Positions 1-40,397 of a DNA stretch of 64,000 bases are shown here, one piece after another. Origin of the DNA: Candidatus Levyibacteriota bacterium (GTDB taxonomy: Bacteria > Patescibacteriota > Microgenomatia > Levybacterales > UBA12049); NCBI GenBank assembly GCA_027459725.1, contig DAIDHK010000007.1:261-64260 (forward strand). The letters are read 5' to 3'. A program made the translations under genes and the position numbers. The notes beneath the pieces are model-generated. The model saw nothing but the letters and a program-made list of their open reading frames with translations, did not search any database and had not been told where the DNA came from. Position 1 is the stretch's first letter, and every line of letters starts with the position of its first letter.

Positions 1-3000
1 CTTAGGGTGTTACTACTGCTGAAAAATTGTATGTTCCCTGTTGATGACCCATTTAGTGTTAACGTATTCGTGCTACTCGCTGTTAATGACCCCGCCCCTG
101 CAAATGTTAATCCCGTCGCACTCGTGTTGATCGTATCTAGTGATGCTACCCCACTGAGTGCCCCTCCTGTCGTAACGTTTAATCCCCCACTGGATGTTAA
201 CGCAAATGTCCCGCTGCTGTTTCCAATCGCAGTTGATGCCGTACCTGTCGTGTTGATATTTGTAGCCCCTGCTACGCTTAATCCACCGTTGAGTGTCTGT
301 AACCCTGTCCACGTATTAGCATTACCTAAGTTTATCCCTAACGTGTATGGACCACTCCCACTTCTCGTCAACGTTGAGTCTGTACTGTTGTTTACAAATA
401 AATTACTTCCTCCCGGACATGTTCCCCATACAGGAGAACCAGTTGAAGCCCCTGAGGATAGAAAGCATTGCTGTGTCCCTGAAGTAGTTGTCGCCAGAGC
501 CAGTTGATTTGAAGTATTTAAATAAATAACGCTACTCTGATTTCCTGTACCTATGCCAGATAGCGTAATATTCCCAGCAGAACTCAGACCTGTCAATCCG
601 CTTATAACACCACTTGCGGTTATATTGCCATTGTTACCTATGGTAAATTTAGTATTTCCAGAACTACTGGCAGTAAAAATATCATTGGTTATCGCCCCTA
701 TCTGATTGACCACTTCTGCCGCATTTCCACCAGTATTTCCCCCATTAACGCTCAAAGTTCCAACCGGTGAATTCGTACCCACACCCAAGCTACCATTTAT
801 AAATGCAACATTTGAACCACTAGAATTGCTCAATACCAAAGCATCTTCATAACCGCTGCTAGTAAGATTAGGCAGTTCAAAACCAATGCTTCTATAAATA
901 CGCCCTACAGCAAATTGTGTACCCAGGCGTAATTCATTATTACTCGAATCCATATACATAAAAGCATATGGGTTTACATTATTTGATACAAACGGATTAG
1001 CGTAAGGCGTCACATTACCGGAAAGTACCAGAACGCCGGTCTCAATAGCACCATTCCCCGCATCAATTGTTTGTCGGGGAGATGTTGTTCCTACCCCTAA
1101 AAATCCACTTCCATTGGAATTGATCAACACATTCCCGGTGGTATTGTATGCAGAAGAGTTCCCTAAAGTTAAATTACCATCATTTGTAGTTGCCAATGTA
1201 CCATCTCCTGTTAAATATACAGCGTTATTTCCGCTATTGGCCGATATACTAGCCACTGGAGTACCTGTATTGTTATTCAAAAATGCAAATTTGGCGCTGG
1301 CTGTACTCGTCCCACCTACAAACAGATCTTCTGTGGCATTTAAAGGATAGATGGAACCATTACCACTAGTAAACAAACTCGTACTTCCTCCTCCTCCGGA
1401 GCCACAGCTACCCCAACTTGGCGAACTGGCACCATTAGAGACTAAACATTGCCCCGATGACCCAGCCGTAGTAAATGAGTAACTACTCCCGTTACTGTAA
1501 GCGATAGATCCAGCCGAACCAATGCTGCTAATGCCTGTTCCCCCACTTGAGACTCCTACTGTGGTAGCGGATAGTAGTCCTGACGAGGCTTGTAAAACAC
1601 CATTGCCTAAGCCTGTAAAATCAATCGAACCTGTAGCTGTAATATTATCAATATTTACTAGGTTACCATTATTATCAATTCTTTCTATCCCCGCTCCGGA
1701 ACCTGAATTAATACCTGTCGTACCGTTCAAAATTGTACCTGTGATTGTACTGGCGGCATTTAGAGCACCGGCCGTAGTGACATTAAAATTGGAGCTGGTA
1801 ATATAATTACCACCTGTTGCAGTTGCACCTGCTAAACCTAGCGTACCAGCACTGTTAATTGAAGCTTCTTCATTACCATTAACTCTAAAAGCAAAATTAT
1901 TATTAGTTGTATTTACTCCTAATGCATAATCATATAACAGACCAGCACTACCACAACCCTCGGTAAAAGTACATTGAATATGTAATGAACCAGGTCCTAA
2001 GAACAGATTTCTAAATCTAGCCGAGCCGCTGGCACCTAAATCGGTAACATTATCAGTTGCCGGAGCTAAATACCCATCTATAGCACTATTACGTGGATTA
2101 ACAATAATGTTACCCGTACTACTGGTGCCCAGTGTTAAAGTCTGAGCATTGGTGGTTCCCAAAACTCCGGCGCCCGATAAATATGTAGCATTATTGGTCG
2201 TATTAGCAGAAATACTGGCTGTAGGCGTACCGCTGTTAACATTAGTGAAGGCAAATTTGGCAGACGAAGTGGATGCACCACCGATCAATAAATCTTCAGT
2301 TGAATTTATTGGATAAATTGCTCCCTGTCCGGCATTAAATAAGTTAGTTCCGCTGCCTAATGTGCAATCACCCCAGATAGGAGCGCTTGTCCCGCCCGAG
2401 AGCAAACACTGATTACTGCTTCCCACTCCTGTAAATTGATAGCGGGTTCCATCTGAATACAAAACTGTTCCCCCTAACCCGATAGAGTTAGTATTAGTAC
2501 CTCCATCATTTATTCCCAGAGTACCTGTAACCTCATTGCTCTCCAAATGAACAGGACCACTACTCAAAACACCTGATGCTGAAAAATGAGCAATGCCGAT
2601 AGAGCCTGTGGCATAAGCTGTACCACCTGCAGTAATCGTCCCGTCATTGGCAATAGTAAATTTAGTAATACCCGATGAACTTGCAGTAAATATATCGTTT
2701 GTATTTGCACCATTCTGATTGACAATAAGCGCAGCATCTCCATTATTTACACCCCCGCTGATACTTAAGTTGTTATCCGTTGCTAAAATTTGAGATCCGG
2801 AGTTATATAAATCTACATTTCCATTAGTGCCGCTAATAGTCAAACCGGTGTTGGCGGTTGTATTGCTTAATAATAGGGCGTTCTTACCAGAAGCTCCTAT
2901 AGACAGATTGCTGGAGAAATTACCCGTACCACCTACATTCAAAGTTGAGCTTCCTCCTGCCTGTCCAATGCTAACAGTTCCATTATTGTTTATATTCATT

Positions 3001-6000
3001 ACATTCAAGTTATAACTGCTATTACCAACATTGGCTGTTTGAATATTTAAACTATCACCGTTTAACAAATCCAGAGTTTGTGTGGCACTAGACCCAACTG
3101 GCACTGTCAAAGAGTAGTTAGTATTAAAAAGGAAAGAAGGATTTGTGTATCTCATACCTACTACTGCAAAGACAGCACTACTGGTAGCAGACGATCCCAA
3201 CAGAAAATCGGTTGTTGGATTACCGGGATATAATGCTCCGTTGGTAATCTCCCAGTAATTAGAACCAACCGTTGACTGATCCTGCCACACAGGTCCACCA
3301 GATCCTCCATTTGAAACCAAAACCTGACCGCTGTTACCTGCTGAAGTGAAATATAACGGGCCATTGGTCCCACCAGAGTATGGCACAGATCCATAAGGAC
3401 CAAATGAAGTAGTACCAGTTCCTCCATTACCTACAGGTAAGGTATTGGTTACATCTGTCGTAAGATTAACTAGTCCGCTGGAAATATTTCCATTACTATC
3501 AAAATGCGCCACGCCTGTTGAATACTTCTTGTCCGTAATTGTTCCATCATTAGCTATTGTAAATTTAGTTATACCCGAACTACTGGCACTGAAGATGTCA
3601 TTTGAAGTACTTCCGATTTGATTAACCACAAATGCTGAATTGCCTCCACTGTTTCCTCCTTCAACATCTAACAGAGCAATTGGATTGGTAGTACCAATGC
3701 CAATATTACCATTATCGTAGATGTCTCCGTCTCCCAATGCATAGGTGCCTGTAAATTTAGCAATATAGTTTGTAATTCCATTCCCACCCAAACTGGCTGA
3801 AGATCCTGAACAGTTTCCGCTCGAATCACAAAGAGTCCGGTTACCCCAGTATAAATATCCAGACGGCGCTCCTGTAGTACCGGTAGTATTTAAAATATCA
3901 TTTATCCCACCAGCCACACCTAATCTAACACCCCCATTGATATCTAACAATTCCTGGGGGTTAGTAGTTCCAATACCTACAAATCCACTTGGGGAAATAG
4001 TCAGTGCAGTATGAAAATAACTTGGAGTATCTCCGCCTGGGCTGGTATTAAAAGTCAGGCTGCTGCCGTTATACAAATTAAAGTTGGCTGCAGCATTTAC
4101 GCCTGTTGGCACCTCCAACGCAAGATTCCCCGAAATGGAAGCAGTAGGATTACCCGTTCCTGAATTATTGATAAAAGCAAATTTGGCACTATCTGTAGAT
4201 ATTCCACCCAATAACAAATCATTACTCAAAAATTTTGGTGAGACAGTTCCCTGATATTCACTCCAATAATTCACGCCCACCGAGCTTGAACTGGTCCAGC
4301 TAGGTGTACCTGTACCATTAGAAATTAAAACATCTCCCAATGTCCCGGATGAAGTAAATCCATAAGCCGTTCCAGTGGAATAAACGATGGAACCAGCAGT
4401 ACCTACAGAGTTATTTCCGGTACCACCTGAACCAAGAGGCAATAGACCACTCACCTCACTTGTTAAATTTACCAGGCCACTAGTTATGGTCCCATTAGAG
4501 CTCAAATGAGCTATTCCTGTAGTCAAATTTGCCAATCTCACGCTGCCATCACTGCCTAAAATCAAAGAGGAAGCCAATCCGCTATCTCCACCCGGAGAAA
4601 AATTGAAATTAAATGACCCTCCGTTTAAGACGTTCAAACTACCCATAAAATTGTTGCCAGTGGGTGCGCTTAATGAAAGATTACCTGAAATAGAGGCAGA
4701 ACGAGTATTAGTGGTAGTGCCAAGAAAGGCAAAGGCGGCAGAAGGAGTTGACTGACCTCCAACCAACAGATCAACTGAATTATCTGCAGGAGTGATAACC
4801 CCATTACCTTCATTCCAATAATTAGTTCCTACTGATCCTGAGCTTACCCAGCTGGGGGCACTGGATCCGTTGGAAATTAAGACCTGCCCAGGATTACCTT
4901 GGACCGTAAAGCTATATCCAGTACCGTCAGAATAAGCGACTGTGCCGGCACTGCCCAAAAAAGTAGTATTAGTTCCGCCTAAGCTGACTGGCAAAGTTCC
5001 AGTCAGATCAGATCCACTAGTTAAATCTATCAAACTACTACTTATTGTTCCATTTGAGCTAATATGTGCCACACCGGTGGTTAATTGAGGCAGCTGTACA
5101 CTCCCGTTATTATTCAAAACAAAACTTGAAGTTAAGCCGCTATTGCCACCTGGTGAGACTTCAAATGATAAAGCTCCTCCATTGAAAATGTTTAAACTAT
5201 TTGAGCCACCAACACCTGTAGGAACTGATATGGATAAATTGCCGCTTATGCTTGCTGAACGAGTAGTGGAGAGTACACCTGAAAACGCAAAAGCCGCCGA
5301 ACTAGTGGCGGTGCTTCCGATTAATACATCGTTAGTTTCATTACCCGGTGATATGGCACCGCTGCCTTGCTGCCAGTAGTTGACTCCTAAAATACAATTT
5401 CCCCATCCCGGTGCGCCTGAACCATTTGATACCAGACACTGATTAGCGGTCCCTTGGGTTGTGAAGTCATAGTAAGTTCCGTTCGAATAAGCGATTGTCC
5501 CAACAGGTCCTAAGTAAGTGGTATTGGTTCCACCCCGGTTAATTGGCAGTGTACCAATCACATCTCCACTAGCCAAGGCTATCTGACTGCTGCTCAAATT
5601 TCCGTTAGCATCGAAGTGAGCTATCCCTGTAGATAAACCTGACATCTGTATCGTACCGTCATTCTTTATAACAAACCTAGTCATTCCAGAACTGCTTGCA
5701 GTAAAGATATCTCCATTACCTGTCTGATCAATAATTCCAGCTGCCATACCAGCCACTGATGATGACCCCTGGACATCCAGCAATCCTAACGGCGCAGCTG
5801 TACCAATTCCGATATTACCTGCAGTGTAGTAGAGACTGCTTCCATTAATTAACCATTGGCCATTTCCTCCCGTTCCGTTGGAAGAAGCAATAGTAATAAT
5901 CTTGTTCGCTGCATCTGTCGTCAAAGTAATCCCGGTACCGGAAGCAAAGTTTAAAGTGTCATTGTTACTGCCAGCTGTGATTGTACTCTGTCCGCTGACA

Positions 6001-7103
6001 GCTATGTTTTTAAAAATATTTTGACTTGAGCCTAAATCATTTGCTGAAATCTGTAATCCATCAATAGAAATTCCTGAACCCGCATCCAATGTTAACGCAC
6101 CCGTCTGCCCCTGCAGACTGGTTTGTGTAACCGTAGAGCTAATGGTTGGCGTTTGACCGGAACTGATACTAATTCCTGACCCGGCTTTTACTCCATAAAT
6201 TAAATTAGCGCCTGTCACATTTCCTGAACCTGCGTCAATATTGGCATTGTTAGTAGTAATCCCCCCGTTCAAGATTGATAACCCATTAGCTGTTAAAGCC
6301 TGACCTACAACTAGAGTTTGCTGAGCACTCACTGAAGAGGAAAAAGTAGTTTCCTGCTTAAAAAGCGATGGAATCGAAACTGTAAATTGTAAATCAGGAT
6401 TGACACTTGCTGCACCAAGTACAGACTGAAATTCATTTCCTTTTAGATCCAGGGTAGTAACAGCTGATTTAAATAAGTTGTAATTTAGCCAGCTATTGCC
6501 TAACCACTGAGGCTTAAAAAATAAAACAGAACTAAGAACAAACAAACTTAAAATTAAGCCCGAAGACGTAAATATGAAATATTTTGATATATTTCTATGC
6601 TTTTTGTTAGCTTCTTCAGAATTTTCAGAGTATAAATTTTCATATGGCATTACATCCGCTGGTGGCTGATAAGCCGCAATTCGTTCATTCAAATCACGTT
6701 GCCTTTCCTGTTCCCAGGCATAACGCTGTGCAATAGTGGCAAAGCCAAGATATTGTTCTTGTTCCTCTGTTTCTTCATTTTCAGTTGCATAATCAAGATC
6801 TAACTTAGGAACTACTATATTTTTTTCAATTGTTGAGATTGGCATCTCCTCAGTTTGAGGCAGGTTTGCTTCCAGAGCTAATTTCCGTAAAGCCTTTTGT
6901 GGATTTTTTTTCTGCAGTAGTTTTCTAAAGGCCCGTAGTTGTTTAACAGTATAACGACGCTGGTTTCCCTGAGTTCGGATGGAGACTAATTTAGCGCTTT
7001 CGTCCCAACGTCTTAAAGTTTGAGTGGAAACATGCAGGTAATCTGCCGCCTCTTGAACGGTTAATTTTTGTACACTTTCTTTGGACAGGGACAGATCTTT
7101 CAT
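1..7103 (-). CDS. Giant surface fibre protein, partial: start codon at 7103, continues past window position 1 (at least 2360 aa in window). N-terminal excisionase/MerR-type HTH, one TM helix (FIFTSSGLILSLFVLSSVLFF), then a huge repetitive ectodomain rich in G/S/T/N with tail-fibre-like motifs
   Basis: Hand translation of the minus strand from ATG (rc of cat at 7101-7103) gives MKDLSLSKESVQKLTVQEAADYLHVSTQTLRRWDESAKLVSIRTQGNQRRYTVKQL..., and the frame stays open to the window edge. The codon just upstream of the ATG is a stop. The ORF track omitted it because it has no stop inside the window. About 7 units recur every roughly 110 aa (e.g. LISNGSSAPSWVSSGSVGTNYWNEGNG), together with LPxxxGGTGxT and GNIGIGTTNPxxLLDV motifs reminiscent of phage tail fibres. 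Confidence 0.8.
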   Translation of the reverse strand, partial: MKDLSLSKESVQKLTVQEAADYLHVSTQTLRRWDESAKLVSIRTQGNQRRYTVKQLRAFRKLLQKKNPQKALRKLALEANLPQTEEMPISTIEKNIVVPKLDLDYATENEETEEQEQYLGFATIAQRYAWEQERQRDLNERIAAYQPPADVMPYENLYSENSEEANKKHRNISKYFIFTSSGLILSLFVLSSVLFFKPQWLGNSWLNYNLFKSAVTTLDLKGNEFQSVLGAASVNPDLQFTVSIPSLFKQETTFSSSVSAQQTLVVGQALTANGLSILNGGITTNNANIDAGSGNVTGANLIYGVKAGSGISISSGQTPTISSTVTQTSLQGQTGALTLDAGSGISIDGLQISANDLGSSQNIFKNIAVSGQSTITAGSNNDTLNFASGTGITLTTDAANKIITIASSNGTGGNGQWLINGSSLYYTAGNIGIGTAAPLGLLDVQGSSSVAGMAAGIIDQTGNGDIFTASSSGMTRFVIKNDGTIQMSGLSTGIAHFDANGNLSSSQIALASGDVIGTLPINRGGTNTTYLGPVGTIAYSNGTYYDFTTQGTANQCLVSNGSGAPGWGNCILGVNYWQQGSGAISPGNETNDVLIGSTATSSAAFAFSGVLSTTRSASISGNLSISVPTGVGGSNSLNIFNGGALSFEVSPGGNSGLTSSFVLNNNGSVQLPQLTTGVAHISSNGTISSSLIDLTSGSDLTGTLPVSLGGTNTTFLGSAGTVAYSDGTGYSFTVQGNPGQVLISNGSSAPSWVSSGSVGTNYWNEGNGVITPADNSVDLLVGGQSTPSAAFAFLGTTTNTRSASISGNLSLSAPTGNNFMGSLNVLNGGSFNFNFSPGGDSGLASSLILGSDGSVRLANLTTGIAHLSSNGTITSGLVNLTSEVSGLLPLGSGGTGNNSVGTAGSIVYSTGTAYGFTSSGTLGDVLISNGTGTPSWTSSSSVGVNYWSEYQGTVSPKFLSNDLLLGGISTDSAKFAFINNSGTGNPTASISGNLALEVPTGVNAAANFNLYNGSSLTFNTSPGGDTPSYFHTALTISPSGFVGIGTTNPQELLDINGGVRLGVAGGINDILNTTGTTGAPSGYLYWGNRTLCDSSGNCSGSSASLGGNGITNYIAKFTGTYALGDGDIYDNGNIGIGTTNPIALLDVEGGNSGGNSAFVVNQIGSTSNDIFSASSSGITKFTIANDGTITDKKYSTGVAHFDSNGNISSGLVNLTTDVTNTLPVGNGGTGTTSFGPYGSVPYSGGTNGPLYFTSAGNSGQVLVSNGGSGGPVWQDQSTVGSNYWEITNGALYPGNPTTDFLLGSSATSSAVFAVVGMRYTNPSFLFNTNYSLTVPVGSSATQTLDLLNGDSLNIQTANVGNSSYNLNVMNINNNGTVSIGQAGGSSTLNVGGTGNFSSNLSIGASGKNALLLSNTTANTGLTISGTNGNVDLYNSGSQILATDNNLSISGGVNNGDAALIVNQNGANTNDIFTASSSGITKFTIANDGTITAGGTAYATGSIGIAHFSASGVLSSGPVHLESNEVTGTLGINDGGTNTNSIGLGGTVLYSDGTRYQFTGVGSSNQCLLSGGTSAPIWGDCTLGSGTNLFNAGQGAIYPINSTEDLLIGGASTSSAKFAFTNVNSGTPTASISANTTNNATYLSGAGVLGTTNAQTLTLGTSSTGNIIVNPRNSAIDGYLAPATDNVTDLGASGSARFRNLFLGPGSLHIQCTFTEGCGSAGLLYDYALGVNTTNNNFAFRVNGNEEASINSAGTLGLAGATATGGNYITSSNFNVTTAGALNAASTITGTILNGTTGINSGSGAGIERIDNNGNLVNIDNITATGSIDFTGLGNGVLQASSGLLSATTVGVSSGGTGISSIGSAGSIAYSNGSSYSFTTAGSSGQCLVSNGASSPSWGSCGSGGGGSTSLFTSGNGSIYPLNATEDLFVGGTSTASAKFAFLNNNTGTPVASISANSGNNAVYLTGDGTLATTNDGNLTLGNSSAYNTTGNVLINSNGSGFLGVGTTSPRQTIDAGNGAIETGVLVLSGNVTPYANPFVSNNVNPYAFMYMDSSNNELRLGTQFAVGRIYRSIGFELPNLTSSGYEDALVLSNSSGSNVAFINGSLGVGTNSPVGTLSVNGGNTGGNAAEVVNQIGAITNDIFTASSSGNTKFTIGNNGNITASGVISGLTGLSSAGNITLSGIGTGNQSSVIYLNTSNQLALATTTSGTQQCFLSSGASTGSPVWGTCPGGSNLFVNNSTDSTLTRSGSGPYTLGINLGNANTWTGLQTLNGGLSVAGATNINTTGTASTAIGNSSGTFALTSSGGLNVTTGGALSGVASLDTINTSATGLTFAGAGSLTASSTNTLTLNGSSTGNIQFFSSSNTL
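300..5500 (-). repeat. Degenerate in-frame tandem repeats of about 330-345 nt (about 110-115 aa) inside the giant gene
   Basis: At least 7 protein-level repeats share the core [LF][LIV]S[NG]G[ST]..P.W...C/S..G.NYW/LF. Examples are the rc of 5425-5465 (LVSNGSGAPGWGNC) and the rc of about 370-430 (FLSSGASTGSPVWGTCPGG). Boundaries are approximate. Confidence 0.6.
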
Positions 7104-7226
7104 AACTTAATCAAAAACTTATACAAGTTTGAGTCTAAAACGAAATTTTTATTGCTTACTTCATTGAAGCAATTTTTCACAACGCTGTCAATGATTATTA
7201 AGCATAATTTTGAGGCTATTTTTTTA

Positions 7227-8087: not shown

Positions 8088-8156
8088 ATTTAACTAAGTT
8101 CAGGCTCTTGTAAAAATCTTTTAAATCTTAGATACTAGAATTAACTATTAAAAACT

Positions 8157-8867: not shown

Positions 8868-9343
8868 ATAACATAACTACTTCTATTTCCCCACTTCTGG
8901 CAGTAATCTATACACGGGAAGAAGCGGAGAAGGTGCAAGATATTTTAAGTGATTCATTAGATTCACTCTACAAAGTACATCATAACAATACTTTATCAAT
9001 CTTATTAGATAATCTCCCTGCTCACATAGGGGAGGTTTTAAAAGATCAGATCGAACAAAAACAAATTGACGTACAAACACCTGAGGCTATAAAAAAAATT
9101 TGTGATAGTTTAGCTTTGGCATTAAAAAATACCGACTTACTAACTTTAAGCCTTGCTTTTGAGCCTAGCTTTGAATTGACACAGAAAATAGCCAAACTCA
9201 TAAAAACTGAGTTTGGTGGAAATACTTTGATTGAAATAGAAGTAGACCCGCATGTAATGGGAGGAGCCATAATTACTTTCAAGGGACAGTATTTTGACTA
9301 TTCATTAAAAACTAAAATAGATCATTTTCTCAAATCGCAATAG
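8864..9343 (+). CDS. atpH: F-type ATP synthase subunit delta (OSCP)
   Basis: A 159-aa helical protein between b and alpha; the 4-nt overlap with atpF is typical of operon coupling. Confidence 0.65.
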   Translation: MNNITTSISPLLAVIYTREEAEKVQDILSDSLDSLYKVHHNNTLSILLDNLPAHIGEVLKDQIEQKQIDVQTPEAIKKICDSLALALKNTDLLTLSLAFEPSFELTQKIAKLIKTEFGGNTLIEIEVDPHVMGGAIITFKGQYFDYSLKTKIDHFLKSQ

Positions 9344-31271: not shown

Positions 31272-31390
31272 TAGGCAAAGTATAGCATAAAGAGAATAAG
31301 TAAGTGATAATGTTTGAGCTAAAGATAGTTGAACATTTTTAGATATTAATTTGTATTTTAATTAGCTTTAGCCTAACATATAATCTGCCT

Positions 31391-32089
31391 ATGCATACAC
31401 GTGCTTTATCTTTTTACTTTTTGTTAATCACTTCTTGTTTTCTGACTCTTGCTACACCCAATGTTTATGCGCAAGCTGACAACTTAGACATTGGAAACAT
31501 CCAGTTAAAGAGTAAGAACTTACCCGCTTCTCCACCAACAATCACTCCTGAACCCAAACAGATAACAAATCCTATAATCACCAAGCATATAATCCTAGAT
31601 AAATATTCTACAGGTCTTATTAATATAGACCTGTCCTTACCTCTCTTGTCATTTACTTCATTAGAACCTACTAATCCTCAGTTGCGTAAAAATAGCTTGT
31701 CGATTAATATAACAGGAGACTCCTCTTTGGGATTATATATTTATACCAATGGCCCCTTAACTAATCAATCTAATCAGCAGAACATCCCCGCAACAAACTG
31801 TGATAACGGCAACTGCAGCCCCAATAATACTGATGAATGGAGCAGTACTCTTACCTATGGCCTGGGATATAATTGTATCGGAGGATTAAGTATATGTCCT
31901 GTAGCTTTTACTGATTCTAATTCCTACCGTCCCTTGTCCATCAGTCTAACTAGAGCAATCCCACTAGACACTGGTCTTATGAACACTAGCCAAGTTTACA
32001 GCCTGCTTTATAAATTAAATGTTTCGGCCGAACAAGCTTCAGGAACTTACATTTCGAATGTGGAATATCTATTTTTACCCAACTTATGA
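31391..32089 (+). CDS. Secreted hypothetical protein (signal peptide; possibly WxL-like cell-surface protein)
   Basis: Signal peptide ending VYAQA. No catalytic motif recognised. The C-terminal ...GTYISNVEYLFLPNL is loosely WxL-like (inference only). Confidence 0.4.
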   Translation: MHTRALSFYFLLITSCFLTLATPNVYAQADNLDIGNIQLKSKNLPASPPTITPEPKQITNPIITKHIILDKYSTGLINIDLSLPLLSFTSLEPTNPQLRKNSLSINITGDSSLGLYIYTNGPLTNQSNQQNIPATNCDNGNCSPNNTDEWSSTLTYGLGYNCIGGLSICPVAFTDSNSYRPLSISLTRAIPLDTGLMNTSQVYSLLYKLNVSAEQASGTYISNVEYLFLPNL

Positions 32090-33051
32090 AATCATATCAA
32101 TATATATCTTTGCATATCATTGGTTGCCTAGCTCTTTTGATAATTTTCATGCTCTCTCAGTCAAAACAAGTAAATGCTAATACGAGCCTATCAGCCTCCC
32201 CTTTAATTCAAACATTATCTCTTACTAACGCTTCTCAGTCAGCAAACTTAGCATTAAGTAACAATAGTAATCATAAAATCATTTTTAGCCTCAATATTTT
32301 GCCATTTAAGCAGTCTAGTAGCAGTAGTGATAGGCCGATACTGGGCTCAAAGAAGGTAATTTTGAGTTCTCCCTTTTTAAAAAATATAACTGTAAGTATA
32401 AATAATCAAGCTGTGCAGTCCTTTGCTCTAGCTGCTCATTCCAGTCAGATACTTCAAGTCCATATTCCACCTCAAATCAAACAACAAAAGCCTACAGATT
32501 ATTATTTCAGCCTTATATTATCGACTAGAAATGCTGCCGATACTGTAAATAATACCGCCAAAAAGGAAATAGATGCTTATATAAATCAGAATCTAGCCAT
32601 AGGCACTCTCTTTCTCTTATCACCCACAATAAGTCTTTTACCTCCGTTAATGCCTCCTAGCCTGGTCAAGTTAACTCAGCCAGAATATGTCTATGGATCT
32701 GCTATTAGAGGGAATATTATTCTTAGAAACCCAAACCCTACCTATCAGAATATATCTATTAGTATCATTCAGAACAATATACTAGGCGCAATTATAAAGA
32801 CTACAAGCATGCCAGAATCTTTTATCTTGGCAAAAAACACTAGACAATTTTCCTATGCCCTCGACACTCAGGGTTATGTAGGAATTGAAAATATAGTACT
32901 TAGCATTAAAGACTTGCATTCAGGTAAATCTATTACCTTAACCAGAAGTGTCATATTGCTACCAACAAAAGTGGGTATACTTATATCTATACTAGTATTT
33001 GGTATTTTATATATTATATATAAAATAAAAAAACGTTTAATACAAATGTGA
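32086..33051 (+). CDS. Cell-surface protein with N-terminal signal and C-terminal TM anchor (CscA/DUF916-like architecture)
   Basis: Signal/TM MKSYQYISLHIIGCLALLIIFMLS, a C-terminal TM VGILISILVFGILYIIY plus KIKKR; the 4-nt overlap with the upstream secreted gene suggests an operon. Confidence 0.4.
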   Translation: MKSYQYISLHIIGCLALLIIFMLSQSKQVNANTSLSASPLIQTLSLTNASQSANLALSNNSNHKIIFSLNILPFKQSSSSSDRPILGSKKVILSSPFLKNITVSINNQAVQSFALAAHSSQILQVHIPPQIKQQKPTDYYFSLILSTRNAADTVNNTAKKEIDAYINQNLAIGTLFLLSPTISLLPPLMPPSLVKLTQPEYVYGSAIRGNIILRNPNPTYQNISISIIQNNILGAIIKTTSMPESFILAKNTRQFSYALDTQGYVGIENIVLSIKDLHSGKSITLTRSVILLPTKVGILISILVFGILYIIYKIKKRLIQM

Positions 33052-33701
33052 AGTCGTTATATAGGTCTCTTTTATCAAGTTCTATAGTTTTTTATCCAAT
33101 ATATTCACCTAAATAATAGAATATATACAGCTCTTCTTTTAATTAGGCATTTTAGGTTGCTATATCTTTCTTAGTAAACGTTTATATTTTTTATCACATT
33201 ATTGCTCAGTGTGCCAATTAGAGTGATTATACGAAATTAATAAGAACTTGAATATATCAGCTTGTGTATTACTACAAGATTCTTCGTTTAGAGTTTTTTA
33301 AAGTTAATTTTAATAGTATATCGGGTTAAGTATAAAATGATTTGCAGATAAGACTAATGCGACAATAAATCAAAGCTAAAATAAGATATTTACCTTTGAG
33401 AAACTTTAAGTAGTAACAGAGGAGTCACTTTGATACTTTATGATAGGGATTATGTTTTCACGTCTTCAGATCTACAAACACATTTTCCTATATTTTTCAT
33501 ATAATATTTATAAATCATTTAAATGTTAATTTATTCTAACATATATAACATGACTTTCGTATTTTTTTAATATATCATAATATATCTCTGGTGCCTAATA
33601 TTGTTTTTCCTCATTGACAGTTTACGGCTATTTATCTACTCTAAAACTAGAGTTATTTTTATTCTTTTGCCGCTCTATAATTCTTATAATCTGTATAATC
33701 T

Positions 33702-36700
33702 ATGGCTAACTTAAATTTTGAACAGCTTTATAAAAATCACCTTATCACTCAGCAACCTCCTCTGCAGGATATATCTGTGAAAAACTACTTGTCTGATCTT
33801 CGTAAGTTCGTCTCCTGGTATGAGTCTAATTATTCACATGAATTTAGACCCCAGGATGTTCATTTTGACACAATTCGTGCCTACAAGCAGTCACTTCAGG
33901 AAAGCGCTTATCACTTATCAGACAATAATGCTAATACAGCTTCCGCTCATTCGCTTGAAAGGTATTTCTCCAGCTTGCGTAAATTCTTTAATTACTTACA
34001 ACAAAATGGATATATATATATCAACCCTTTAAGTCATGTATCACAAAGTTCGATAGAGGACCCCTTTCTTTTTAAAGCATTTAAAAACTACCTACTTCGC
34101 GAGAAAGCCAGTCCTGCAACAATTAAGAACTACTTAACTGACATTCAACTATTTTTATTCTGGTTTAGAACCACTTATCAGAACCTAGAACTAAAAAATG
34201 ATTTTTCTTCATATCTAACTGAGGAAATTATTAAAGAGTATAAACAACGTCTTCTTTCAGAGAACATTGCCACTTCAACTATAAACAGACGCTTATCTTC
34301 TTTAAAAAAATACATTAATTATTTGGATATAAAATGTCATACACCACATAACCCTATAGCTATATCTAGCATTCCCTATAATAATACTACTGTTACACCT
34401 AAAACTTCTCCTATTGGAAATGAATCAAACTCCAAGGAATTTAAATATTCTTCTTTTCCCCCACTACGAGTTTGTCAGAAACTTTATAAAGGTTTTGATT
34501 ACTTGATAGATCATACCTTAATAAATCCATTAACATATGGAGTTATTGTTGGACAATATATTATCTGGAAAACTTCGGGTCAAAAAATATTTGTACCTAC
34601 TCAACAAGTTGATTCACAATTTAGTTCTTACATTCAAGATCGTATGAATAGCGTCTATTGGTCTAGGCATCGAAAAAAATACTCACAAGAATTTCTTGCT
34701 CCTATAACAATACCTAACAATATTACAAACAAGCAATCAATCAGTAAATTTGTATCTCCGAAACTAACATATACTATTACCGGTTTTTTAGTTCTTGCAC
34801 TCTTACTCAGCTTAACTTACTTTTTTATTTTTTTAAGAACTTACGTAGTAAATCAAAGAGTCTTAGGACTTCAGACTGCGCAAAGGCTATTATCTTTTCA
34901 AGGAAAACTTCTCGACGCAGAACAAAAACCCATCACCCAGCCTACACAAGTCAGATTTAGCCTCTATAACGATCCCACCAGCTCTGGTTCTGCTCTACTA
35001 TGGCAAACCATAGACACTGTCAAGCCTAATAACAATGGCAACTTCCAAATAACCCTTGGCCAAAATGAAGAGTTGCCACAAACTATCTTTTCTAATAATC
35101 CCTCAATTTATCTGGGAACTACTATTGCCAATAACCCTGAACTAACTCCCCGAGAGGAAATTCCCAGTACAAGCTTAAGTGCGGATTCTTTAGCTTTAAA
35201 TGGTATGGCTATTGTTAATTCCGCTTCTGGTCCACAAAGAAATGTAATCTTGGCCCTGGATTCCTCAGGCAACTTACAGATTGCTGGATCTTCATCACCT
35301 ACTTTTTCAGCTACCAATGGGACATTTACGCTAAGCGGCAACTTGACTGTTATTAAATCAAATGACCAGTCTAATGGTAATGTAGTAATTGCACCAGATG
35401 GTTCTGGCATGATTGACTTACAAAAACCTCTGACAAATACTGCTTTAACAGGTAATTTCGCGGATAATCTGGGCGCCGTAGAAGTTGATGACAGACTGGC
35501 CGTTTGGGCAACCTCCAGTGCTCAACCAGCCTTGCAAATAGAACAAGACGGCACTGGTCCCCTACTCAATGCCAGTTCCAGTGGAGTGTCCAAATTCACA
35601 GTTAGCTATACGGGTACAGGCACATTTGCAGATAATTTAGCTATTAATGGAGGCAATTTAACTAGTAGCGCCAGCACTTTTGGTTTGCTAAATAATGGTC
35701 CGCTCGAACTGGATATTGGGAACTCTGCCTATGACATAAATATAGGTAGCAGCAGCGGCATCATGAGAATCAACAATCCCACGACCGCTCTTTCTGGTAA
35801 TCTGAACATCAATGGAACACAAGGCCTAGCCTTCACCGGTGATAACGCAGGCATCAACTTTAGCGGTTATGATAACCATGTGATAGAGGCAACTCAGGGT
35901 GCATTGTTGATTAATAACGCACAAATAAATAATCCCCAATTCAACTCCAATGTCATAGTTAATAATCAGCTAGGAGTGGGTAATACTTCTCCCCAATTTA
36001 GACTGGATGTTGTAGATGATCAAAAAGCCACAGCTTCAGCCATGATTACTAATTTAAATTCTAATAACTCTCCGCAAGCTTCGGTACTAGCTCTAAAGCT
36101 TGGTAATTCCCAAAGTTCAAATGGACATTTTATAAACTTTCTGGACAGTAAAGGTGAAATTTTAGGTAGCATTCAGGGTAATGGATCAGGAGGGATCACT
36201 TTTGCACAAAGTGGGATAGGAGATTTTGCAGAATACTTACCTAAAGATCCAAATGAGTCTATTCCTACTGGAGCATTAGTCTGTTTTACTCCATCACAAA
36301 CCATCACGCAGTGCAATTCGCAATCTTACTCCTCTCTTGCTGGAGTTACTTCTGCCTCACCTACCATCCTAGCCGGTCACAATAACGGCCCTGCCTCAAC
36401 TCCAGTTGGCTTTGTAGGACAATTGCAGGTGAGAGTAAGCACGCAAAATGGCAATATTCAACCAGGAGATCCAATCTCGGTTTCTGATATTCCTGGCGTA
36501 GGAGTAAAAGCCACTTCAGCAGGACCTATTATTGGACATGCACTCGCAAGCTATACTTCCACTGACCCCTACCTCATTGGTTCAATCTTAGTAGTAGTAC
36601 AACCAAGCTGGTATGACCCAGCCATAGAAATTACTAATGCTGGCAATCTGAATATCAATATGCCGACCACACCTCAGGCAGGAAGCAACACTCATTCTAT

Positions 36701-38150
36701 CTATCAGCTGAATAACAGTAACGGTGTTATCCTAAGTTCAATAGCAGCATACGCTTTAGCAACTATAGCTAATTTACAAGCCGGCATGGTCAACACAAAG
36801 GATTTAGTAGTTAATGATAGCGCGAGTTTTCTGGGGACACTGCAAGCAGATACCATACAAACCACTCAGCTTTCTGCAAATAATATTTTAATCGCAGGAG
36901 TTTCACTACAGGACTATGTCAACAATTTAATTCATCAATCACAATCAAATATTGCCAGCCCCTTATCATCTTCGATTAACAGCTTGGCGGTAAATATTAT
37001 TAGCCCACTTGGGACACAAAGCGCAGTTACTATAAACGGTAATGTGAATATTAATGGTAGTGCAAGTGTATCAGCAAACTTGTCTTCGGCTAACCTGCGA
37101 ACTACAGATGCTACAGTTAGTGGAACATTGTACGCGCACAAAATAGTGGCTGATGAAATTCAAGGATATAATGCCAGTCCAAGCGCCACATATATTACTA
37201 ATGTTACCAATGTTTACCAAACTGCCACCCAAGATGCACAACTAAATGCTAATTTAGCTGATAATACAATCGCTACTTCCAGTGCTAATGGAAATGATGT
37301 TTCAACACAAGAGTTAGCCAATCAAGCTATCACACCATTACCTAACAACATCAATCTTGCTTCATACAGCGCCCAACTCTCAAATACAAATTTACAAGTT
37401 GCTACCCTCAATGTTACAACCGGTTTGATGAGCAGCGGAACAACAAGCTTGGCTGATACTGCAATTGCCGGAGAATTAACCATTAATGGCCGACTAAGCG
37501 TGGTAAATACGGAAATTAATGTAGTCGGTTCTGATTTAGAACTACAACCACTACGTCAAGGCGGTATAGACTTTTTAGATGGTTTACTTACTATTGACCC
37601 AAATGGAAATTTAAATGTCACCGGAAACGCAGTATTTAATCAGAATATTACTGTAAAAGGAGATTTGGCTACAAATACACTCTCCCCTTTGGCGAACAAC
37701 AACTTATCTATTAACTTAGCTACCCCTTCGGCCATCAATAATCCTAGGCTTAATGTTAATAATGCATCCGGAAGTGCTGTCTTAAGTCTTGATCAACAAG
37801 GGAATCTTAGCGCTTCGGGTAGCGGCAATTTTGCCCAAATCATTTCAAATGCCCTTAATATCGTGCATGGAGCGCAGGCAGATACTTCTATTACACAAAC
37901 CATAGCTACTGCTTCAGCCGGAACTGCGGTCATTTATCGAGGCCAAACTGAAAAGACTATTATTACTCCTTACGCTCATGCAACGTCATTAATATATATC
38001 TCTCCCAGCTCAAATACATATGGCCAAACACCATATATATCCCGTCAAACCGACTCAAAAGTTGACCCAAATCAACCGAACAGTTTTACCATCCAAATAT
38101 CATCGCCCGTTGACCAGGACATCCACTTAAATTGGTGGATAGTAAATTGA
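33702..38150 (+). CDS. Giant (1482 aa) membrane-anchored surface fibre protein: two tandem N-terminal integrase SAM-like core-binding domains (no catalytic domain), one TM, and a repetitive ectodomain with tail-fibre-like motifs
   Basis: NYLSDLRKFVSWY...IRAYKQSL...SLERYFSSLRKFFNYLQQNGYIYINP and a second copy IKNYLTDIQLFLFWF...INRRLSSLKKYINYLDIKCHTPHNP (Phage_int_SAM-like). TM TYTITGFLVLALLLSLTYFFIFL. Ectodomain motifs include QLGVGNTSPQFRLDV and a domain NGNIQPGDPISVSDIPGVGVKATSAGPIIGHALASY. Confidence 0.8.
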   Translation: MANLNFEQLYKNHLITQQPPLQDISVKNYLSDLRKFVSWYESNYSHEFRPQDVHFDTIRAYKQSLQESAYHLSDNNANTASAHSLERYFSSLRKFFNYLQQNGYIYINPLSHVSQSSIEDPFLFKAFKNYLLREKASPATIKNYLTDIQLFLFWFRTTYQNLELKNDFSSYLTEEIIKEYKQRLLSENIATSTINRRLSSLKKYINYLDIKCHTPHNPIAISSIPYNNTTVTPKTSPIGNESNSKEFKYSSFPPLRVCQKLYKGFDYLIDHTLINPLTYGVIVGQYIIWKTSGQKIFVPTQQVDSQFSSYIQDRMNSVYWSRHRKKYSQEFLAPITIPNNITNKQSISKFVSPKLTYTITGFLVLALLLSLTYFFIFLRTYVVNQRVLGLQTAQRLLSFQGKLLDAEQKPITQPTQVRFSLYNDPTSSGSALLWQTIDTVKPNNNGNFQITLGQNEELPQTIFSNNPSIYLGTTIANNPELTPREEIPSTSLSADSLALNGMAIVNSASGPQRNVILALDSSGNLQIAGSSSPTFSATNGTFTLSGNLTVIKSNDQSNGNVVIAPDGSGMIDLQKPLTNTALTGNFADNLGAVEVDDRLAVWATSSAQPALQIEQDGTGPLLNASSSGVSKFTVSYTGTGTFADNLAINGGNLTSSASTFGLLNNGPLELDIGNSAYDINIGSSSGIMRINNPTTALSGNLNINGTQGLAFTGDNAGINFSGYDNHVIEATQGALLINNAQINNPQFNSNVIVNNQLGVGNTSPQFRLDVVDDQKATASAMITNLNSNNSPQASVLALKLGNSQSSNGHFINFLDSKGEILGSIQGNGSGGITFAQSGIGDFAEYLPKDPNESIPTGALVCFTPSQTITQCNSQSYSSLAGVTSASPTILAGHNNGPASTPVGFVGQLQVRVSTQNGNIQPGDPISVSDIPGVGVKATSAGPIIGHALASYTSTDPYLIGSILVVVQPSWYDPAIEITNAGNLNINMPTTPQAGSNTHSIYQLNNSNGVILSSIAAYALATIANLQAGMVNTKDLVVNDSASFLGTLQADTIQTTQLSANNILIAGVSLQDYVNNLIHQSQSNIASPLSSSINSLAVNIISPLGTQSAVTINGNVNINGSASVSANLSSANLRTTDATVSGTLYAHKIVADEIQGYNASPSATYITNVTNVYQTATQDAQLNANLADNTIATSSANGNDVSTQELANQAITPLPNNINLASYSAQLSNTNLQVATLNVTTGLMSSGTTSLADTAIAGELTINGRLSVVNTEINVVGSDLELQPLRQGGIDFLDGLLTIDPNGNLNVTGNAVFNQNITVKGDLATNTLSPLANNNLSINLATPSAINNPRLNVNNASGSAVLSLDQQGNLSASGSGNFAQIISNALNIVHGAQADTSITQTIATASAGTAVIYRGQTEKTIITPYAHATSLIYISPSSNTYGQTPYISRQTDSKVDPNQPNSFTIQISSPVDQDIHLNWWIVN

Positions 38151-38219
38151 GCCTGATATTATCATATATATATTTTGTTATATTGACAAAACGAGCAAAA
38201 AACCTGAATAATAAATATT

Positions 38220-40397
38220 ATGCAAAACAATTCATCTCTTTCTGTGAGTTTACAAAAAATCGCTGTAGTAATAATGGGTATTGCTCTCTTGGTGTTACCT
38301 ATTCTTTATACCTCATTAACAACTGACCCATTCACCTTACCAAAGCAAATTGTGATTGCTGTCGCTGCTGCCGTAGCAGTTATTGTTTATGGAATATCTA
38401 TGATTGCGGACCGTAAAATGTTTTTCCGTGGTACACCTTTTGATATAGCAGTTTTGTTATTCATAATCGTTGCTTTCGCTTCAGCTGTCTTCGCTGTTAA
38501 TAGAATCGATAGTTTGACCTCTTTCTTCCCACTTCTATTTGCAGTGTTGTTTTATTTTAGTATTACTAATCTCGTCAAGAAAGAAAACGATATAGTATTT
38601 CTGGTTAGTGCGCTAGTTATTGGAGCTTTGGTGAGCACGCTCTTATCTGTTTTTCAGTTCTTTAACATTTATTTACTCCCTTTTGCAGACACTCATTCTC
38701 AGGGTTTCACTACATATGGGTCTTTCTTAGATCAAGCCATCTACCTGGCTATTGTATTACCTCTAGCTTCTTATTTAGCTTTTCCTCTTTTTCAAAGTAA
38801 TGGTATTCTAGCCAATAAAAGGACCTTATTAATGCACCGCGATGGTAGCTCTGGGCAGATGAGCAGAGCAATTGTATTCGCATTTGCTGCGTTCGTATTG
38901 CTAATCGGCTTGCTGATCACCTTATTTGAATTATTCACGACTCAAAAGCCATTAATTTTACCTTTTGCTACCGGATTTCAGACGGCCTTTGCTTCTATCT
39001 CTCAAGATACTACTCTCTTAAAGAGTTTCTTGCTGGGTAGTGGATTTGGCACCTATCTGACTGATTTCACTCGTTTCAAATCAGCCTCCTACAATATGGA
39101 CCAAACACTATGGTCAGTCACCTTTGTGCGCTCAACCAGTTTCTTTCTGGAGTTAATTGCCACTACTGGATTCTTGGGAGCTTTATCTTTCTTATTCTTA
39201 GTTTATAGAGTAATTAAACAAAAAGTATTCTTCTTACCCCTGGTTATAGCTTTACTAGCTGCGTTCTTATTACCATTCTCTCCTGTCATCGTTACCTTGT
39301 TGTTTGTCATCTTAGGTATCTTCGCGAGTTTGTTGGCCCTACATCATCCTAATAAATTTCCAACCTTTGAGTTTCACTTTGTCGCCTTCAATCAGGGTTT
39401 GGTTAATGCCACGCAAGAAGGTAGTACCTCACGTCAGCATTCCAGCCGCTTCCTACCAAGTGTAGTATTCATAATTATCCTAGCTTTAGTAGGCATAGTA
39501 GGCTACTTTACATTTGAATACTTACAATCAGATATGGTCTTTGAACAATCTTTAGTCGCAGCAAGAGAGAATAAGGCCCAAGACACCTATGACTTACAAA
39601 GACAAGCCATCAGTATTTTCCCATATCGAGATTTGTACTACACAGTCTTCTCGCAAACTAATCTAGCATTGGCAAATTCTCTAGCTGCCAGCCAACCGAA
39701 GAACAAAAAACCAGATACAACAGTACAAAATACCATCTTACAGTTGATTCAACAATCTATCACAGCGGGCCGTGCAGCTGTAAGTGTGGCTCCGGAGACA
39801 GCATCTGACTGGAACAATCTGTCTTCCATCTACCGCAGTCTGATCGGCTTCGGTCAGAACGCTGATGCTTACGCTATTGCTACTGCTCAACAAGCTATAG
39901 CTTTGGACCCTAAAAACCCACAACAGTATATAAACTTGGGCGGCATCTATTATCAGCTGGGTCAGTGGGATAATGCTATAACTCAATTTACCTATGCCTG
40001 GAATGCTAAATCTGACTATGCCAATGCATACTATAATTTAGGTCACGCTTATGAAGCTAAAGGAGACTTGAACAATGCTTTGCAAGCTTTTCAGGTCGTA
40101 CAACAGTTAGTTGCTGGTAACAAAGCCAATAGTGATAAGATTAGCGCTGAAATTAAGGCATTACAAAATAAAATAAACTCTCAAAGTCAAGGTAATTCTT
40201 CTAACTCAGCTACTAACAATCAACAAGCCGGTTCTAACGCAAGTAATCAGCAATTAAAGGTAAGTACACCTCCAGCTACTTTACCAAAGATCAGTCCAAA
40301 AGCTGAAATTCCCGGCCCATCTGTCTCACCTGTTCCATCCAATCCATTACCATCAACAGCTCCTAAGACGACTTCTACAGTCACCCCAAAACCATAA
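38220..40397 (+). CDS. Polytopic membrane protein of the O-antigen ligase/Wzy_C family with C-terminal TPR repeats and a P/S/T-rich tail
   Basis: About 12 TM helices with a Wzy_C-like periplasmic loop (GSGFGTYLTDF). TPR units (AYAIATAQQAIALDPKNPQQYINLGGIYYQLGQWDNAITQF..., ANAYYNLGHAYEAKGDLNNALQAF). Tail PPATLPKISPKAEIPGPSVSPVPSNPLPSTAPKTTSTVTPKP. Confidence 0.65.
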   Translation: MQNNSSLSVSLQKIAVVIMGIALLVLPILYTSLTTDPFTLPKQIVIAVAAAVAVIVYGISMIADRKMFFRGTPFDIAVLLFIIVAFASAVFAVNRIDSLTSFFPLLFAVLFYFSITNLVKKENDIVFLVSALVIGALVSTLLSVFQFFNIYLLPFADTHSQGFTTYGSFLDQAIYLAIVLPLASYLAFPLFQSNGILANKRTLLMHRDGSSGQMSRAIVFAFAAFVLLIGLLITLFELFTTQKPLILPFATGFQTAFASISQDTTLLKSFLLGSGFGTYLTDFTRFKSASYNMDQTLWSVTFVRSTSFFLELIATTGFLGALSFLFLVYRVIKQKVFFLPLVIALLAAFLLPFSPVIVTLLFVILGIFASLLALHHPNKFPTFEFHFVAFNQGLVNATQEGSTSRQHSSRFLPSVVFIIILALVGIVGYFTFEYLQSDMVFEQSLVAARENKAQDTYDLQRQAISIFPYRDLYYTVFSQTNLALANSLAASQPKNKKPDTTVQNTILQLIQQSITAGRAAVSVAPETASDWNNLSSIYRSLIGFGQNADAYAIATAQQAIALDPKNPQQYINLGGIYYQLGQWDNAITQFTYAWNAKSDYANAYYNLGHAYEAKGDLNNALQAFQVVQQLVAGNKANSDKISAEIKALQNKINSQSQGNSSNSATNNQQAGSNASNQQLKVSTPPATLPKISPKAEIPGPSVSPVPSNPLPSTAPKTTSTVTPKP

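Follow-up and report, generated by a model that had tools for sequence, protein, structure and literature searches.

The bitopic regulators ToxR, CadC, and TcpP share a plan in which a cytoplasmic N-terminal DNA-binding domain (DBD) is followed by a linker, one transmembrane (TM) helix, and an extracytoplasmic domain (PMC7888679, PMC11323476). In the membrane transcription factor MYRF, an N-terminal DBD is combined with a phage autocleavage (ICA) domain and a TM helix (PMC8326128). Bdellovibrio encodes its own mosaic adhesive trimer (MAT) fibers, which resemble phage tail fibers and recognize other bacteria (PMC10769870), and cultured Patescibacteria need multiple adhesins for epibiotic growth (PMC10633639). 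Here we describe a chromosomal gene of a Candidatus Levyibacteriota bacterium whose product carries two tandem Xer-type core-binding (CB) domains, a predicted single TM helix, and an ectodomain of ~1,100 amino acids (aa) that resembles phage tail fibers. The gene lies in a stretch of 64,000 nucleotides (nt) (contig DAIDHK010000007.1, positions 261 to 64,260), referred to throughout as the window; coordinates are those of the window unless stated otherwise.

The coding sequence (33702..38150, plus strand) begins with ATG, is intact, and encodes 1,482 aa. An identical protein (P0049) is already present in NCBI on a 71.6-kb contig, and the orthologues P0169 and P0170 have 1,482 to 1,483 aa and are 76 to 81% identical to it in the ectodomain. 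An earlier note, made by reading the DNA without database searches, had described a giant fiber protein with two integrase-type CB domains and had called its architecture recurring and uncharacterized. The architecture and the family that shares it are now established, and no paper describing a CB-CB-TM-fiber family was found in the literature searched.

When residues 1 to 240 were compared with Pfam, Phage_int_SAM_1 (PF02899) matched in two stretches with an E value of 6.4e-14, and Phage_int_SAM_5 and Phage_int_SAM_4 also matched in two stretches each. NCBIfam models for XerC, XerD, XerS, and XerA likewise matched twice each, via model positions ~2 to 107 only and with a score of 62 bits against a cutoff of 335 bits. 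The two copies, which the earlier note had read from the sequence, are CB1, a Xer-type (SAM-like) four-helix domain (33708..34034; residues ~3 to 111; predicted cytoplasmic), and CB2 (34068..34337; residues 123 to 212); they are 29% identical to each other (E value of 4e-11). In an AlphaFold2 (AF2) model of the N-terminal part, built on 18 relatives, both form four-helix bundles with pLDDT values of >90, with helices at residues 3-16/23-44/55-71/82-101 in CB1 and 124-133/138-158/174-186/191-211 in CB2. A Foldseek search of the PDB returned tyrosine-recombinase CB domains as its best seven matches, all with a probability of ~1.0 and including Brujita Int (5vfz), XerA (4a8e), 3nrw, lambda Int with core DNA (1z19/1z1b), and IntI; further recombinase CB domains (Cre, Tn1549 Int) followed down the list. 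The root mean square deviation was 2 to 3 Å over ~105 residues for Brujita Int, 3nrw, and lambda Int and up to 6.5 Å for XerA, and E values were merely 0.06 to 0.4 because the CB domain is small relative to the query. Neither the N-terminal 240 aa nor the ectodomain had a significant match when searched by sequence against the PDB. The only near match, a weak alignment to CB1 (E value of 0.25), involved chain 14 of the ribosome entry 9i5v, a 401-aa chain labeled "Ribosome-associated translation inhibitor RaiA"; it shows a typical Xer CB signature (DYAQDL...RRLSALKSFYKYM), and the RaiA label is odd for an integrase-like sequence.

The recombinase catalytic domain is missing, as had been claimed. 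PF00589 gave no match in the window protein at an E value of ≤1 and is absent from all 22 and 119 homologues listed, and neither Pfam nor NCBIfam revealed a catalytic-domain remnant in the window protein, where CB2 is followed by a linker and the TM helix. No bona fide Xer gene that could serve for comparison was found within the window. The earlier description of the head as borrowed from mobile elements is loose, the best model matches being to chromosomal XerC/XerD and not to phage integrases.

In 191 full CB-CB sequences, both repeats keep the CB signature, with the pattern S/T-x-T-[VI]-K-N-Y-x-x-D-[IL]-x-x-F-x-x-W in helix 2 (B) and S-x-x-[ST]-x-x-R-[RK]-L-S-S-L-R-K-[FY] in helix 4 (D), although overall identity is merely 25 to 40%. 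In CB1, N28, Y29, D32, and R87 are invariant in the family and K27, S90, S91, and R93 are nearly so; in CB2, N143, Y144, D147, and R196 are invariant. Conserved basic positions are K27, R87, R93, and K94 in CB1 and K142, R196, K197, and R202 in CB2. In Cre, XerD, and lambda Int, helices B and D sit in the major groove of DNA. Retention of this signature without a catalytic partner argues for retained nucleic-acid binding, and we put the chance that the CB domains bind DNA at about even.

CB2 is joined to the membrane by a basic juxtamembrane linker of ~145 aa (34338..34772; residues 213 to 357; pI 9.7; predicted cytoplasmic), which is conserved, with a YSSFPPLR motif (YSSFPPLRxxQK...) and a predicted long helix at residues 253 to 291. 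Next comes a single predicted TM helix (34773..34844; residues 358 to 381), a signal anchor with predicted N-in/C-out orientation. It is the sole strong hydrophobic segment, in line with the one TM helix originally proposed, and hydropathy revealed no N-terminal signal peptide. On the N-terminal side of the helix, Lys plus Arg (K+R) make up 11 to 13% of residues and the pI is 9 to 9.7; in the 1,100 aa on the C-terminal side the values are 2 to 4% and 4.35. Among 201 relatives, the 20-aa flanks of the TM helix contain a mean of 4.25 K+R on the N side and 2.11 on the C side, and the N side has the larger number in 160. This charge bias makes N-in/C-out type II topology the best prediction, one in which we place high confidence. 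The structural claims of the note were all borne out, with the qualification that the anchor of the protein is the TM helix and not the CB pair. A second TM helix at residues ~250 to 290, suggested by crude hydropathy of homologues, was rejected (maximum Kyte-Doolittle value of 0.87 here; charged residues in relatives); the segment is modeled as a long amphipathic helix. The TM helix itself is 17% identical to that of L001, the locus of the closest orthologue, and hydrophobic in both, with flanking segments 59 to 78% identical; DNA alignment of this region with L001 shows ordinary divergence and small indels and no frameshift.

The ectodomain is acidic and rich in N, S, T, and G. Residues 382 to 1482 were modeled with AF2 from 59 relatives, which gave three modules with high confidence. 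The first is a beta-sandwich (34878..35174; residues 393 to 491; pLDDT 85 to 93) with LSFQGKL...TPRE motifs, conserved in every family member long enough to contain it. After a stalk rich in N, S, G, and T (35175..36221; residues 492 to 840) comes the second, a Peptidase_G2-type intramolecular autochaperone (36222..36614; residues 841 to 971; pLDDT >90). A distal fiber region with short predicted helices and low-confidence repeats (36615..37871; residues 972 to 1390) then leads to the third, a C-terminal beta-sandwich (37872..38144; residues 1391 to 1481; pLDDT ~90) that ends in a conserved FNWWIVN and contains the near-invariant residues N1096, W1097, and N1101 (ectodomain numbering); this domain is a candidate for the distal binding tip. 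Low pLDDT in a monomer model between modules is as expected for an intertwined oligomeric fiber.

Peptidase_G2 (PF11962) matched residues 822 to 893 above the Pfam cutoff (27.8 bits versus 25; E value of 2e-6), and the first Foldseek matches for the ectodomain were premature phi29 gp12 (3suc; E value of 1.4e-5) and its C-terminal autochaperone fragment (3gqh; E value of 1.4e-4), bearing out the tail-fiber likeness that the note had read from motifs. The window motif G840-D841-F-A-E844-Y845 has D, A, E, and Y at least 90% conserved among 60 relatives, and the profile of this 60-sequence family ("sgiaDFAEYlkKd") aligns with phi29 gp12, which reads NTWS691-D692-F-A-E695-Y, with an E value of 1.3e-13. 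D692 and E695 are reported to be the catalytic pair of gp12. Residue 691 is the last one of the mature gp12* tassel (PMC6542822), so the DFAEY motif begins exactly at the known processing point. The alignment predicts cleavage between G840 and D841 (codons 36219-36224; GDFAEY motif from residue 840), and a surface fiber that processes itself is, on this reading, probable. About 20 relatives, together with P0220 (residues 942 to 995 of 1,551) and P0055 (residues 948 to 1002), carry Peptidase_S74, an endosialidase-type chaperone, in place of G2 and at an equal relative position. The exchange looks like a module replacement, and an internal autochaperone is thus conserved whichever type is used.

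To determine how widely the architecture occurs, we searched with residues 1 to 400 and obtained 22 proteins, all with SAM-like domains and all lacking a catalytic domain; where the sequence is of sufficient length, it goes on into the linker, the TM helix, and the "LSFQGRLTD...TPRQPIATVAYALNS" ectodomain module. A profile search of 1.84 billion cluster representatives gave at least 725 clusters (50% identity) at an E value of ≤1e-30, and among the best 150 nearly all match from residue 1 to the first ectodomain module, with lengths of 600 to 6,048 aa. With one genome per species, a relative was found in 226 loci. A CB-CB open reading frame (ORF) of at least 1,000 aa with a TM helix at residue ~250 to 430 is present in 55 of the 80 best loci, which shows the architecture to be recurrent; the remaining 25 are mostly cut by contig ends or assembly gaps. 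Informative labels among the 80 are mostly Candidatus Levyibacteriota/Levybacteria, other Microgenomates, and "Patescibacteria group." About 30 loci are labeled by their submitters as "uncultured Gammaproteobacteria" or similar, and a few carry other non-candidate phyla radiation (non-CPR) labels, which we read as putative mislabels. The comparison that the note had proposed across CPR and Gram-positive genomes returned an overwhelmingly CPR set and not one Gram-positive label among the loci retrieved.

The gene has a fixed chromosomal setting. The order leucyl-tRNA synthetase (LeuRS) gene (minus strand), small secreted protein gene(s), fiber gene, and tetratricopeptide repeat (TPR) protein gene is conserved (window 28641-40397; L001 to L080): in 45 loci the LeuRS gene is upstream and oppositely oriented, in 53 an upstream gene encodes a relative of a 232-aa secreted protein, and a relative of the 725-aa TPR protein is found in 22, directly downstream of the fiber gene in 20 of them. 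The small secreted proteins sometimes span several kb of paralogues. Identity to L001 is 93% for the TPR protein and for an M23/LysM peptidase, 63% for the fiber head, and 56% for the 232-aa protein. Flanking genes in the window are housekeeping genes (LeuRS, ArgRS, Rho, tRNAs), and 2.9 million viral contigs contained a single weak relative. Synteny and near-absence from viral contigs indicate a core chromosomal gene and not phage or island cargo; in Candidatus Levyibacteriota it is vertically inherited. Public databases name family members "site-specific integrase," "site-specific recombinase XerD," "tail fiber domain-containing protein," or "peptidase G2 ... domain-containing protein"; the integrase and XerD names are misannotations.

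In distant Microgenomates (L066, L074, L075, L076, L078, L079, and L080) the gene consists of two cistrons, the break falling within CB2, in the loop that joins its helices B and C. The first cistron, ORF1 (150 to 180 aa), encodes CB1 and helices A and B of CB2; ORF2 encodes helices C and D of CB2, a TM helix at residues ~75 to 105, and a fiber of >2,400 aa where the contig allows. The gap between the ORFs is -1 to 9 nt at four loci and 123 to 140 nt, with a long hairpin, at two; in L078 a 192-aa ORF is inserted between the cistrons. In locus coordinates, the split sites lie at 2839-3388 in L066, at 1536-1997 in L074, and around positions 7900 to 9200 in the others. The DNA-binding head can thus be a separate polypeptide, docking on the membrane protein by domain completion.

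A second protein in the window combines a DBD, a TM helix, and a fiber, as the earlier note had stated. This protein, giant protein 1 (3..7106, minus strand), has at least 2,367 aa and runs off the window; it consists of an HTH_17/MerR domain (residues 14 to 61), an acidic linker between head and TM helix, and a fiber of >2,100 aa with many copies of an ...NQxG...IFTASSSGxTKFTI... repeat. The stalk motif ALxINQxGTGPLxxASSSGxxKFTV is common to it and to the CB-CB-headed fiber. P0255 and P0256 likewise join an HTH_17/MerR head to an ectodomain of partial homology (~30% identity over a third). Fibers of one kind thus bear different DNA-binding folds, and DNA binding is the property common to the CB and MerR/HTH_17 heads.

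The note had drawn attention to three TATAAT boxes just ahead of the ATG, and these proved to be part of a conserved element. In the window, the tandem 9-bp repeat element (33675..33709, plus strand) consists of TATAAT boxes at 33676-81, 33685-90, and 33694-99, the last ending 2 nt before the ATG at 33702, and then CTATGGCTAA. When upstream DNA from all loci was aligned, the element was near-invariant as [GT]ATAA[AT]CNG-TATAATCNG-TATAAT-YTYGARGCTAA, that is, three 9-bp direct repeats and then a conserved box, of which CTATGGCTAA is the window version. The exact 18-mer GTATAATCNGTATAATYT is present as a single copy in 40 of the 80 loci. Its strand is always that of the family gene, and it lies mostly 20 to 130 nt upstream of this gene and in a few cases up to ~700 nt. 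With a relaxed motif, 70 of 77 matches in 1.07 Mb (both strands) lay <800 nt upstream of the gene, covering 61 of 81 loci, and the exact double box occurs in the 64-kb window at this site only. A metagenome-wide 25-mer scan found 96 sites, 79 of them followed by a CB-CB ORF at a median distance of 40 nt; the rest were mostly truncated contigs, ORF-calling artifacts, or sites with a small four-helix-bundle ORF just downstream. Although identity among the encoded proteins drops to ~30%, the element itself hardly varies, and variants of it precede split ORF1 too. Chance occurrence of TATAAT boxes through AT richness is ruled out by this conservation and gene specificity. No tandem TATAAT element was seen near the start of giant protein 1.

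In the window and L001, the ATG falls within the conserved box (CT-ATG-GCTAA versus CTYGARGCTAA), which means that this lineage has lost the usual 20- to 60-nt leader; we infer that it translates from a very short or absent one. About 60 nt upstream of the repeat element is a conserved block (33614..33642, plus strand) in which a perfect TTGACA (33614-33619) is followed by TACTCT (33637-33642), weakly similar to a -10 box; it is a possible distal promoter. Conservation with L001 extends over the final ~150 to 170 nt of the 650-bp intergenic region; the remainder has diverged. Tyrosine recombinases act on inverted-repeat core sites (dif/att); only a direct tandem repeat was found upstream. Its similarity to the inner arms of dif (ATAA/TTAT) was set aside as too weak for DNA so rich in AT. 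Repeat units at L076 and L079 have the sequences GTCTAATCA GTGTAATTA GTATAATCT, and helix B of CB1 is there HKNYRSDL and not VKNYLSDL; this may be protein-DNA covariation, with two related genomes too few to judge. At L090, L103, and L134 a small four-helix-bundle ORF of the 23S rRNA intervening-sequence type (...SIxSNIAEG...) lies directly 3′ of the repeat element; the contigs of L090 and L103 end before any fiber gene could be seen.

We favor a reading, held at a little under even confidence, in which the protein is a membrane-anchored, self-processing surface fiber with a DNA-binding cytoplasmic CB pair, acting perhaps on its own operator. The fiber would probably assemble as a trimer, aided by the internal phi29 gp12-type (Peptidase_G2) autochaperone, and would probably cut itself at G840|D841; with ~500 residues following G2, the products would be an anchored stalk (residues 382 to 840) and a distal piece of ~640 aa (residues 841 to 1482). 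Its most plausible task would be to attach the cell to a host cell or substrate, a host-contact role made plausible by the Bdellovibrio MAT fibers and the Patescibacteria adhesins. The CB pair would bind DNA, making this a membrane-tethered DNA-binding protein of the ToxR/CadC kind. A pair of tandem DBDs matched by two or three tandem repeats at the -10 region of the same gene points to an autoregulatory operator. The likeliest CB target would be the 9-bp direct repeat GTATAATCN, in two or three copies overlapping the -10 region of the gene's own promoter, where binding could autoregulate the gene, tether the locus to the membrane, or both. That the gene's own repeat is the target we propose only tentatively, as somewhat unlikely.

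Several observations weigh against this reading. CB1 of the window protein is not basic (pI 6.3), and isolated recombinase CB domains bind weakly without the catalytic domain. In the comparison with L001, CB1 is 72%, CB2 65%, the linker 59%, and the TM helix 17% identical, while the ectodomain is 76 to 84% identical. The tandem TATAAT array could be a strong, gene-specific, multistart promoter, co-occurrence of repeat and gene is expected of any conserved promoter, and a 9-bp period falls short of one helical turn. For the fiber, trimerization and self-cleavage follow from homology, AF2 confidence is low across ~40% of the ectodomain, and G2 is internal (residues 841 to 971 of 1,482, ~57 to 65% of the length) with ~500 conserved residues after it, whereas in phages it is C terminal.

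Much of this would be accounted for if the fiber had the same role and the CB pair were a scaffold that does not bind DNA and instead docks a protein partner from the cytoskeleton, secretion, or glycosylation, as RodZ does with MreB, or, in a variant, helps to oligomerize the fiber from inside. The TATAAT array would then be no more than a strong promoter dedicated to an envelope protein made in large amounts; strong multiple promoters and 5′ hairpins are classic traits of genes for S-layer and other abundant surface proteins, and several leaders of the family do show hairpins. The faster evolution of the cytoplasmic part than of the ectodomain, the pI of CB1, and the conserved ~145-aa juxtamembrane module that accompanies the CB pair all fit such a scaffold, as does the gene split inside CB2 in other Microgenomates, by which CB2 acts as a protein-protein complementation interface. 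What the family conserves, however, is the generic CB signature in helices B and D, with four or five basic positions per repeat; an unrelated MerR/HTH_17 domain at the same position on sister fibers is hard to fit to a head that only docks proteins; and the flanks of the repeat (G before and C after TATAAT) and its 9-bp phasing are near-invariant beyond the needs of a -10 hexamer. We therefore regard a pure scaffold as possible but rather unlikely. Those same DNA-binding signatures, and the presence of two different DBD heads on giant fibers in one genome, would also be explained if the CB pair bound DNA nonspecifically, as a tether between nucleoid and envelope or a means of coupling gene to membrane during cotranslational export, with no regulatory function and no relation to the repeat. 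The DBD is translated first and the TM signal anchor lies at about residue 360, and a trimeric fiber would bring six CB domains together at the membrane. Such a tether leaves the extreme, gene-specific conservation of the tandem repeat unexplained, and we consider it unlikely.

The closest characterized relatives of both halves of the protein are phage or recombinase proteins, the public names include "site-specific integrase" and "tail fiber domain-containing protein," and a VirD4-like gene lies ~9 kb away, so the gene might be suspected of being a relic or artifact: a decayed integrase joined by frameshift or misassembly to a prophage tail-fiber gene, or part of a mobile element. The ORF is nevertheless intact, the same architecture recurs in hundreds of clusters, the LeuRS-TPR synteny is fixed across at least 45 genomes with housekeeping flanks, the family is essentially absent from viral contigs, and a catalytic-domain remnant is absent; an origin of this sort is very improbable. 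A further proposal, by analogy with Notch or adhesion G protein-coupled receptors, is that the protein is a contact sensor of a proteolytic, mechanical kind that relays to the CB domains. G2 or S74 would pre-cleave the ectodomain into two noncovalently held pieces, and the distal tip, on engaging a host cell, would pull the pieces apart or alter the trimer. The change would be relayed via the TM helix to six clustered CB domains, which would bind or release the 9-bp operator and possibly other sites; in the split lineages, the soluble fragment of CB1 and half of CB2 would be a releasable messenger. This sensor is a long shot. If it were true, it would be a new class of bacterial transmembrane signaling built from a recombinase DNA-binding module and phage fiber parts.

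Upstream of the fiber gene are two overlapping genes for small exported proteins (31391..33051, plus strand), one of 232 aa with a signal peptide and one of 321 aa with a signal peptide, a C-terminal TM helix, and a basic tail; neither has a Pfam or NCBIfam match. The C terminus of the 321-aa ORF (32086-33051) reads ...LLPTKVG, a hydrophobic helix, and a KIKKRL tail, resembling a sortase-type or other C-terminal anchor signal. Downstream, the 725-aa protein (38220..40397, plus strand) is a polytopic membrane protein with C-terminal TPR repeats, recognized in Pfam/NCBIfam together with a weak N-terminal IctB-family match (E value of 0.002); its relatives are 40 to 51% identical (93% in L001), and it may be a factor for glycosylation or assembly that resembles O-antigen ligases. 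Farther along, 57481-59583 and 60320-63676 (plus strand) encode large polytopic membrane proteins of 700 and 1,118 aa, the larger with a weak GT-C/AftD-like match (E value of 8e-4); they may be glycosyltransferases for envelope or fiber glycans. The VirD4/TrwB-like coupling ATPase (47012-49264, minus strand; 750 aa) lies ~9 kb downstream of the fiber locus.

The family matters for annotation, because giant CPR proteins that cannot recombine DNA bear the names integrase or XerD by the hundreds, which inflates the numbers of integrases and mobile elements counted in Patescibacteria genomes. In Levyibacteriota, a lineage with no cultured member, these conserved envelope proteins are leading candidates for structures of host contact. 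A CB domain that works alone, in tandem, and tethered to a membrane would, if true, be a new functional context for this fold, and the MerR/HTH_17-headed sisters hint at a wider rule in these bacteria, by which a TM helix links a DNA-binding head to a giant fiber. The gene-specific repeat makes the operator hypothesis concrete, reducing it to a 230-aa protein fragment and 33 bp of DNA. Two traits are unusual in protein evolution: a phage autochaperone that is internal and keeps its cleavage motif intact, and lineages in which the gene is split inside a domain.

Set beside known systems, the head has the same four-helix CB fold and signature (T-x-K-N-Y-x-x-D; R-x-x-S-S-L-R-K-F) as tyrosine recombinases of the XerC/XerD and phage types, whereas the CB domain is doubled here, the catalytic domain and its RKHRHY residues are missing, and the protein has a membrane anchor and 1,482 aa; because the catalytic domain was looked for and is absent, it is not a tyrosine recombinase. 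The closest layout is that of ToxR, CadC, and TcpP, whose bitopic plan the window protein is predicted to share. ToxR recognizes direct repeats, and the window gene likewise has a direct-repeat candidate operator. In contrast to that class, the DBD is a tandem CB pair and not an OmpR-type winged helix (the Pfam search of residues 1 to 240 gave no Trans_reg_C match), and a fiber of 1,100 to >5,000 aa takes the place of a small sensor. RodZ has the same bitopic layout with a DNA-binding-type fold inside and no sequence relationship; its HTH domain binds MreB and not DNA. The autochaperone is shared with phi29 gp12 and other phage fibers that have an intramolecular chaperone, G2 being recognized by sequence and fold and the DFAEY motif being identical, but it is C terminal in the phage spikes and internal here, in a cellular, membrane-anchored protein whose locus is chromosomal, between LeuRS and a TPR membrane protein, unlike phage structural modules. 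Bdellovibrio MAT fibers are likewise cell encoded and resemble phage tail fibers, without a cytoplasmic DNA-binding head; the MAT fiber Bd2133 (8ond) was a weak Foldseek match (probability 0.18), with the stalk poorly modeled as a monomer. As in MYRF, one polypeptide combines a DBD, an autocleaving trimerization domain of phage tail-spike type, and a TM helix. The DBDs differ, Ndt80-like in MYRF and a tandem CB pair here, and so does the arrangement: MYRF has its ICA domain interposed between DBD and TM helix, on the DBD side of the membrane, and cleavage there frees the DBD, whereas the autochaperone of the window protein lies beyond the TM helix, where cleavage would free the distal fiber and not the DBD.

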